Source of the DNA: Escherichia coli
Lineage (GTDB): Bacteria > Pseudomonadota > Gammaproteobacteria > Enterobacterales > Enterobacteriaceae
Length of the DNA stretch: 64,000 nt
Assembly: GCF_045037415.1 (NCBI RefSeq)
Contig: NZ_CP173438.1
Direction: 5' to 3' (one strand)
The number at the start of each line of letters is the position of its first letter. The first letter of the stretch is position 1. Below are positions 9,107 to 9,535 of this stretch, one piece after another. A program made the position numbers and the translations under genes. The notes beneath the pieces were generated by a model. That model searched no databases. It saw nothing but the letters and a program-made list of their open reading frames with translations, and was not told the origin of the DNA.

Positions 9107-9535
9107 TTACGCTTTGGTGGCAATCAGGATGGCTGATGCTTTGATCAATGCAATAACGCGCGAGCCAGTGGTGAGTTTCATTTCATCCTGACTTTCATTT
9201 GTTACCACTGCCACAATTTCAAAACCCGCATCCGTTTTGATATGGACAGTGGCGTTCACTGCGCCTTCGGTGATTGTCGACACGCTGCCAGCAAACTGGT
9301 TGCGAGCAGAGAATTTCAGTCCACAGTCTTCCGTTGCCAGCGTTACCCACGGGGCTTTAATCAGGGCAATCGCTTCTTTCCCTTTCGCCAGACCCAGCGC
9401 TTGCTGGCTGCTGTGAGTCACAATTGCCACCAGCTTTGCACCACCTGCCAGCGTCAGTTCTACTTCGTCATTCACCGCGCCCATTGCTACTGCGCTAACT
9501 GTTCCGGTTAATTGATTTCTTGCTGAAACTGCCAT
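9107..9535 (-). CDS. molbindin (Mop-like), tandem TOBE molybdate/tungstate-binding domains
   Basis: 142-aa ORF starting MAVSARNQLTGTV with second repeat FSARNQFAGSV (two TOBE units); strong SD aggagg 5 nt upstream of ATG at 9535; upstream in-frame extension to 9574 rejected. Confidence 0.8.
   Translation of the reverse strand: MAVSARNQLTGTVSAVAMGAVNDEVELTLAGGAKLVAIVTHSSQQALGLAKGKEAIALIKAPWVTLATEDCGLKFSARNQFAGSVSTITEGAVNATVHIKTDAGFEIVAVVTNESQDEMKLTTGSRVIALIKASAILIATKA

Follow-up and report, generated by a model that had tools for sequence, protein, structure and literature searches.

The closest described relative of the protein considered here is ModG of A. vinelandii (PDB 1h9j, 1h9k, 1h9m), which is about 145 aa long and consists of two tandem Mop/TOBE domains. 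Its gene reportedly lies beside the mod transport locus, is controlled by ModE and serves the molybdenum supply of nitrogenase and nitrate reductase. ModG accommodates eight molybdates per trimer and has a role in molybdenum homeostasis (PMC11980592). The same fold is found in the C-terminal di-Mop domain of the E. coli regulator ModE (PDB 1o7l, 1h9s), which additionally possesses an N-terminal winged-helix DNA-binding domain; further relatives are the single-domain proteins Mop and Tub (tungbindin; PDB 1gug, 1fr3, 9beb), about 70 aa long and forming hexamers. Oxyanion sites of two kinds are common to Tub, Mop, ModG and ModE, the type-1 site being built of the backbone of Ala20-Val21-Asn22 and the type-2 site of Ser4, Arg6, Ser40 (Ser/Thr40), Lys60 and Ala61 (2025 Tub paper, PMC11980592). 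In a 2025 survey, which deals with the TOBE proteins of gut genomes, genes of the double-domain 'TudG/ModG' architecture (IPR005116,IPR005116) are listed for C. freundii, C. youngae, E. marmotae and 'E. coli_D' and are not discussed. The family, the fold and the binding chemistry are already known, and the gene described below is generically annotated in RefSeq and listed in that survey. Our literature search found no published study of this gene, of its linkage to fhlA or of its loss in K-12, and a paper on the transcriptome of strain Nissle in colitis does not mention it.

The window, i.e., the whole stretch of Escherichia coli DNA that was analysed (64,000 nucleotides of contig NZ_CP173438.1, assembly GCF_045037415.1), carries a molbindin gene of this kind between fhlA and ygbA (Table 1). 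A preliminary description had proposed at this place a 142-aa di-TOBE gene with a strong Shine-Dalgarno sequence and short spacers of its own, and the analysis bears this out: the reading frame, running from 9535 to 9107 on the minus strand, is preceded by GGAGG and is separated by 44 nt from the stop codon of fhlA (9580-9582) and by 38 nt from that of ygbA (9068). The Shine-Dalgarno sequence is kept as AGGAGG or GGAGG across the orthologous loci. A longer reading of 155 aa, starting from a GTG at 9574, is unlikely, as the position of the Shine-Dalgarno sequence and the start of all orthologues (M-x-V-S-A-R-N) fix the ATG at 9535. In the RefSeq annotation of E. coli SK1144, a strain differing from the window at 4 of 50,000 bases, a 'TOBE domain-containing protein' (WP_000301062.1) occupies exactly 9107-9535, and the gene order is ygbN...pphB-mutS-ygbA, then molbindin-fhlA-hypEDCBA, then hycA-I. 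In contrast to modG of A. vinelandii, the gene is linked to fhlA and not to mod: its neighbours here are fhlA and ygbA, no linkage or co-regulation with mod genes was found, and its hosts are mostly incapable of nitrogen fixation. This context is the sole difference from the prototype.

Table 1. Position of the molbindin gene, its signals and its neighbours in the window.
Feature	Position	Strand	Remarks
ModG-type di-Mop (tandem TOBE) molbindin CDS	9107..9535	-	142 aa, ATG start; open reading frame and translation, Pfam, TIGR00638, ModG match, AlphaFold2 model, RefSeq
Shine-Dalgarno sequence GGAGG	9540..9544	-	4 nt 5' of the molbindin ATG; read from the sequence
fhlA (formate hydrogenlyase transcriptional activator)	9580..11658	-	directly upstream of molbindin, same strand; open reading frame and RefSeq of a near-identical genome
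ygbA, convergent downstream neighbour	8724..9068	+	open reading frame and RefSeq of a near-identical genome
fhlA-molbindin spacer, 44 nt	9536..9579	-	no terminator; conserved TATACT box at 9564-9569
GC-rich hairpin terminator, common to the convergent ygbA and fhlA-molbindin transcripts	9069..9099	.	14-bp stem, T-run on the minus strand
Segment of about 480 bp missing in K-12-type E. coli (6 nt there instead)	9098..9578	.	one gene with ribosome-binding site and spacer; pairwise alignment

The protein matches the Pfam family TOBE (PF03459) twice, first between residues 4 and 66 with E = 1.6e-17 and then between residues 76 and 137 with E = 6.2e-16, with no other significant domain, and exceeds the cut-off of the NCBIfam model TIGR00638 ('Mop') with 142 bits against 55, the match again falling into two stretches; the domains extend approximately over residues 1-68 and 73-142. 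Among the solved structures, its best relative is ModG of A. vinelandii (PDB 1h9j; E = 5e-33 over the full length, 49% identity over 138 residues without gaps), followed by the di-Mop domain of E. coli ModE (about 1e-15) and then by the single-domain Mop and Tub, to which each half of the molbindin is 30-41% identical. An AlphaFold2 model of the monomer, built on 66 di-TOBE sequences, has a mean pLDDT of 96.9 and can be superposed on ModG 1h9j with a TM score of 0.95 and an rmsd of 1.3 Å, and on the ModE di-Mop domain with a TM score of 0.89. Judged by its sequence and by this predicted structure, the protein passes all the tests for the ModG family, and the earlier assignment to the tandem-TOBE molbindins, for which the homology to TOBE/Mop is strong, can be refined to membership of the ModG type.

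The candidate oxyanion ligands are S4, R6, A20-V21-N22, T40, K60 and A61 in the first domain and S76, R78, A92-V93-N94, T112, K132 and A133 in the second one; in Tub, the ligand residues stand at numbering identical to that of the molbindin. In a set of 46 distinct orthologue sequences, none of these 16 positions varies, save three with a single conservative substitution each. As in ModG, the type-1 (A-V-N) and type-2 (S-x-R, T, K-A) motifs are complete in both domains. The di-Mop domain of ModE, 34-36% identical to the molbindin, has the same molybdate ligands in its first Mop domain, whereas its second Mop domain, according to the alignment, is devoid of the SARN, T and KA motifs. Since the second domain of ModE has lost these motifs and both domains of the molbindin are complete, the latter is, on the grounds of the alignment, ModG-like and not ModE-like. 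The dN/dS values obtained in comparisons with orthologues, from E. albertii to Cedecea, are 0.03-0.10, and because of these low values we regard the reading frame as a real gene under strong purifying selection and not as a chance one.

Identities other than ModG were also considered for this protein. As to the regulator ModE itself, the molbindin consists of 142 aa of TOBE domains only, lacks the winged-helix domain and aligns solely to ModE residues of about 124-261; with the model NF007957 it reaches 88 bits, where the cut-off demands 369. The single-domain proteins Mop and Tub (about 70 aa) do not fit, as two TOBE domains are present here on one chain. As for the ABC ATPases ModC and WtpC, only the TOBE tails of the respective models match, far below the cut-offs.

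The 44-nt spacer that separates the gene from fhlA contains no terminator, its weak fold (-11.9 kcal/mol) not being followed by a U-run; the strong hairpin of the unit (-24.2 kcal/mol) comes after the molbindin gene. Because of this arrangement, and judging from the geometry alone, the gene is probably co-transcribed with hyp-fhlA from the hyp and fhlA promoters. A scan of the minus strand for the sigma-70 consensus revealed no promoter for the molbindin gene; the TATACT box, which has neither a convincing -35 nor an extended -10 element, may be a weak -10 element, and the sequence GG(C/T)TATACT around it is conserved in the orthologous loci, including the relocated copies of Salmonella. A promoter of its own is possible in view of the longer spacers (74-101 nt) of three species, Lelliottia, Enterobacter soli (74 nt) and Citrobacter amalonaticus (101 nt), and of the situation in Lelliottia, where a terminator-like hairpin comes after fhlA and a TATAAA box stands between this hairpin and the molbindin gene. 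Upstream of the gene, no ModE operator was found with up to two mismatches to the consensus TATAT-N7-TAYAT, and a comparison of 8300-9900 with the Rfam families gave no match at E <= 1, to a Moco riboswitch or to any other.

Orthologues of the molbindin, 77-99% identical to it, occur throughout Enterobacteriaceae. A scan in which each species was represented by one genome yielded 49 molbindin loci; the order hypE-fhlA-molbindin on one strand was observed in 39 loci from about 38 species of the family, with a gap between fhlA and the molbindin gene of 31-101 nt (median 44). Species with this order include E. albertii, E. fergusonii, an Escherichia sp., eight Citrobacter, Raoultella and Klebsiella, as well as representatives of Kluyvera, Pluralibacter, Yokenella, Lelliottia, Kosakonia and Enterobacter, and the divergence of the molbindin parallels that of FhlA and HypE. 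Since the same gene stands at the same place in about 38 species, the comparison of loci leads us to the conclusion that in Enterobacteriaceae the molbindin gene is ancestral at the position after fhlA and that E. coli of the K-12 type has lost it.

Where the interval between fhlA and ygbA holds extra DNA, this DNA lies downstream of the molbindin gene. In Raoultella planticola (locus L005, 5626-9057), a four-gene cluster of a ZnuA-family ABC transporter is located between the molbindin gene and ygbA, and similar clusters are present in loci L017, L022, L024 and L027. Presumably, sitABCD and SPI-1 of Salmonella occupy the same interval. The region from fhlA to mutS looks like an insertion hotspot in which the molbindin gene stays on the fhlA side.

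The gene also occurs where no fhlA adjoins it. Only a short 3' remnant of fhlA is left in Phytobacter diazotrophicus, P. ursingii and Kosakonia sp. S29 (loci L041, L046 and L053, at about 4866-5000), where the molbindin gene is intact and directly follows hypE. The orthologues of Serratia, Cedecea and Edwardsiella (69-74% identity) are located away from fhlA, among unrelated housekeeping genes that give no clue to function. In Salmonella enterica (L003, 5001-5429; L004; L061, 4001-4429; L063), the gene is accessory and also located away from fhlA, in islands flanked by IS21 or IS66, beside chaperone-usher fimbrial genes; these relocated copies bring along about 45 nt of upstream sequence, including GGCTATACT with the conserved box. 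In locus L003, a YedYZ/MsrPQ-like molybdoenzyme pair lies about 3 kb from the molbindin gene, and on one Salmonella diarizonae contig the gene adjoins that of a sigma-54 PTS regulator. In Enterobacter sp. EA-1 (L051), the molbindin gene is frameshifted and fhlA and hypE are fragmented, which may be a problem of assembly quality.

Within E. coli, the gene was found in 1892 of the 5426 complete genomes (about 35%), always on the chromosome and in a single copy. The carriers include O25b:H4-ST131, Nissle 1917, ST1193, O127:H6 and APEC O2:K1, which we take to belong to phylogroup B2, as well as ST38 of phylogroup D. About 65% of the genomes, O157:H7 and K-12 among them, are devoid of the gene. In MG1655 (K-12), fhlA (b2731) is directly followed by ygbA (b2732), and the K-12-like strain JME67 has the same arrangement, so that the preliminary description was right in treating these two genes as consecutive in K-12. 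Its view of the molbindin gene as an additional one is valid relative to K-12 and fails as a statement of gain, since the gene is ancestral in the family and was lost in K-12-type E. coli. The sampled genomes without the gene all match in two pieces in the same manner (531-535 nt) and lack, as one clean indel, the about 480 bp of 9098-9578. No signatures of insertion sequences, repeats or integrases were detected at its junctions, where microhomology is slight. The E. coli lineages to which K-12 and O157 belong would have lost the molbindin gene through one deletion of about 480 bp.

The terminator hairpin is present in both forms of the locus, standing directly after fhlA in the K-12-type strains. 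Its stem exhibits a compensatory change (GGAGAG/CTCTCC in the window and GGACAG/CTGTCC in K-12). The end of ygbA differs as well (window 9040-9099 versus 1840-1905 of the K-12 locus L001), the product being 114 aa long and ending in ...RPKK* here and 117 aa long in K-12. Damaged alleles are rare; one of them was observed in the E. coli genome H90 (NZ_CP070152.1, strain FDAARGOS_1285), where only the 5' third of the molbindin gene is left and ygbA has no match.

Some other genes of the window deserve mention. Three small genes are located between hycI and hydN (23445-24604), where K-12 presumably has the ascGFB operon; they encode a 61-aa hypothetical protein, a 139-aa HTH protein and a 145-aa hypothetical protein, the HTH protein matching PD-Lambda-2_B of PADLOC (E = 2.4e-14) and no NCBIfam family. 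Between luxS and emrB (49113-50929), there is a two-gene cassette, which we believe to be missing from K-12. It encodes a 370-aa 'ATP-binding protein' with weak matches to an HD domain and to polynucleotide kinase (Pnkp-like) and a 235-aa 'RNA ligase family protein'. The cassette looks like a pair of the RNA-repair or defence type; it has no match in PADLOC.

Considering the evidence on family membership, fold, binding motifs, selection and synteny, we suppose, with a probability of about 0.82, that the product of the gene is a cytoplasmic ModG-type molbindin, which is predicted to act as an intracellular store or buffer of molybdate, and that the gene is ancestral at the 3' end of hypABCDE-fhlA and was lost once. 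By homology, a chain composed of two Mop/TOBE domains alone would form a trimer; the molbindin being a covalent tandem, this predicted trimer would equal the hexameric assembly of Mop and Tub. Up to eight oxyanions of molybdate or tungstate would be bound at the subunit interfaces, the predicted contacts being backbone amides and side chains of Ser, Thr, Arg and Lys, and such binding would provide the cell with a molybdate store or buffer. By analogy with ModG, the protein should perform this role for molybdate or tungstate. As its gene is located between the stop codon of fhlA and the terminator of the unit, the protein would be made alongside FhlA, under anaerobic, formate-inducing conditions.

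A more specialised role has to be weighed against this general one, namely that the molbindin is dedicated to formate hydrogenlyase (FHL), either delivering or holding molybdate for the Mo-bis-MGD of formate dehydrogenase H (FDH-H) or acting as a molybdate sensor that modulates how hyc and fdhF are activated through FhlA or ModE; the placement of the gene behind fhlA would in this case be functional. FDH-H is a molybdoenzyme and the expression of fdhF and hyc needs molybdate, which makes a contribution of the molbindin to the molybdenum supply of FDH-H plausible. For maximal expression, fdhF and hyc depend on FhlA and formate and, beyond these, on molybdate and ModE (PMC3149613). The link to FHL, which had been suggested from the placement of the gene beside fhlA, hyp and hyc, is thus sensible in that the gene lies inside the fhlA unit, a position kept in about 38 species, and that FHL responds to molybdate; it is weakened by the survival of the gene without fhlA. 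The molbindin is retained in spite of the deletion of fhlA in Phytobacter and Kosakonia sp. S29 and stands on its own in the unrelated contexts of Serratia, Cedecea, Edwardsiella and Salmonella, so that the linkage to fhlA may reflect inherited synteny and not functional coupling. Besides, FHL of K-12 is normal and active in a strain devoid of the molbindin gene, the protein has no DNA-binding or other extra domain, and neither a ModE-type operator (by the consensus given above) nor a Moco riboswitch precedes the gene. On balance, dedication to FHL seems to us a possible role, with the odds rather against it. The still more far-reaching proposal, that in most Enterobacteriaceae the hyp-fhlA operon ends in a dedicated molybdate buffer or sensor, which tunes the cofactor supply of FDH-H or the molybdate dependence of the activation by FhlA and ModE, is in our opinion unlikely.

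Alternatively, the protein could mainly sequester tungstate, either shielding the synthesis of molybdoenzymes from tungstate as an antagonist or storing tungsten for a tungsten-using enzyme. The sites of Mop and Tub take tungstate and molybdate alike, the ModG architecture is commoner in genomes predicted to be tungsten-using, and Table S10 of the same paper includes E. coli genomes with a WOR-family gene, although without TupA (PMC11980592). On the other hand, no linkage to tup or WOR genes is present in any locus examined, and tungsten cannot be told from molybdenum by sequence. Enterobacteria import molybdate by ModABC and have no known need for tungsten. We consider a tungstate sink to be improbable. 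As for a recent horizontal insertion, i.e., an accessory islet specific to the strain or lineage, it could explain the absence of the gene from K-12, O157 and about 65% of the E. coli genomes as well as the IS-flanked copies of Salmonella; it is, however, hardly compatible with the same position and orientation of the gene in E. albertii, E. fergusonii, Citrobacter, Klebsiella/Raoultella, Kluyvera, Kosakonia and others, with a divergence that tracks the flanking FhlA and HypE, and with junctions free of repeats, IS elements and integrase, and we give it very little credence. Least probable of all is a decaying or non-functional remnant, for which the losses in many E. coli lineages, the truncated copy of H90 and the frameshifted copy of Enterobacter sp. 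EA-1 could be adduced, since the low dN/dS effectively refutes decay, the 142-aa frame is unbroken in 50 loci and the binding residues vary little or not at all.

The advance made here is incremental in that the family, the fold and the binding chemistry were well understood before; what it changes is the picture of one locus. The textbook account of molybdenum homeostasis and of FHL regulation in E. coli is derived from K-12, the strain in which, to our knowledge, the whole of FHL regulation was established. K-12 has no free-standing molbindin and is atypical at the much-studied fhlA locus, while the ancestral enterobacterial state, with a ModG-type protein within the fhlA transcription unit, is kept by about 35% of the sequenced E. 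coli. If the hyp-fhlA operon did end in a dedicated molybdate buffer or sensor, ExPEC strains of phylogroups B2 and D and strain Nissle may respond differently to molybdenum limitation, and their response to the treatment with tungstate that is used to suppress enterobacterial blooms may differ as well.
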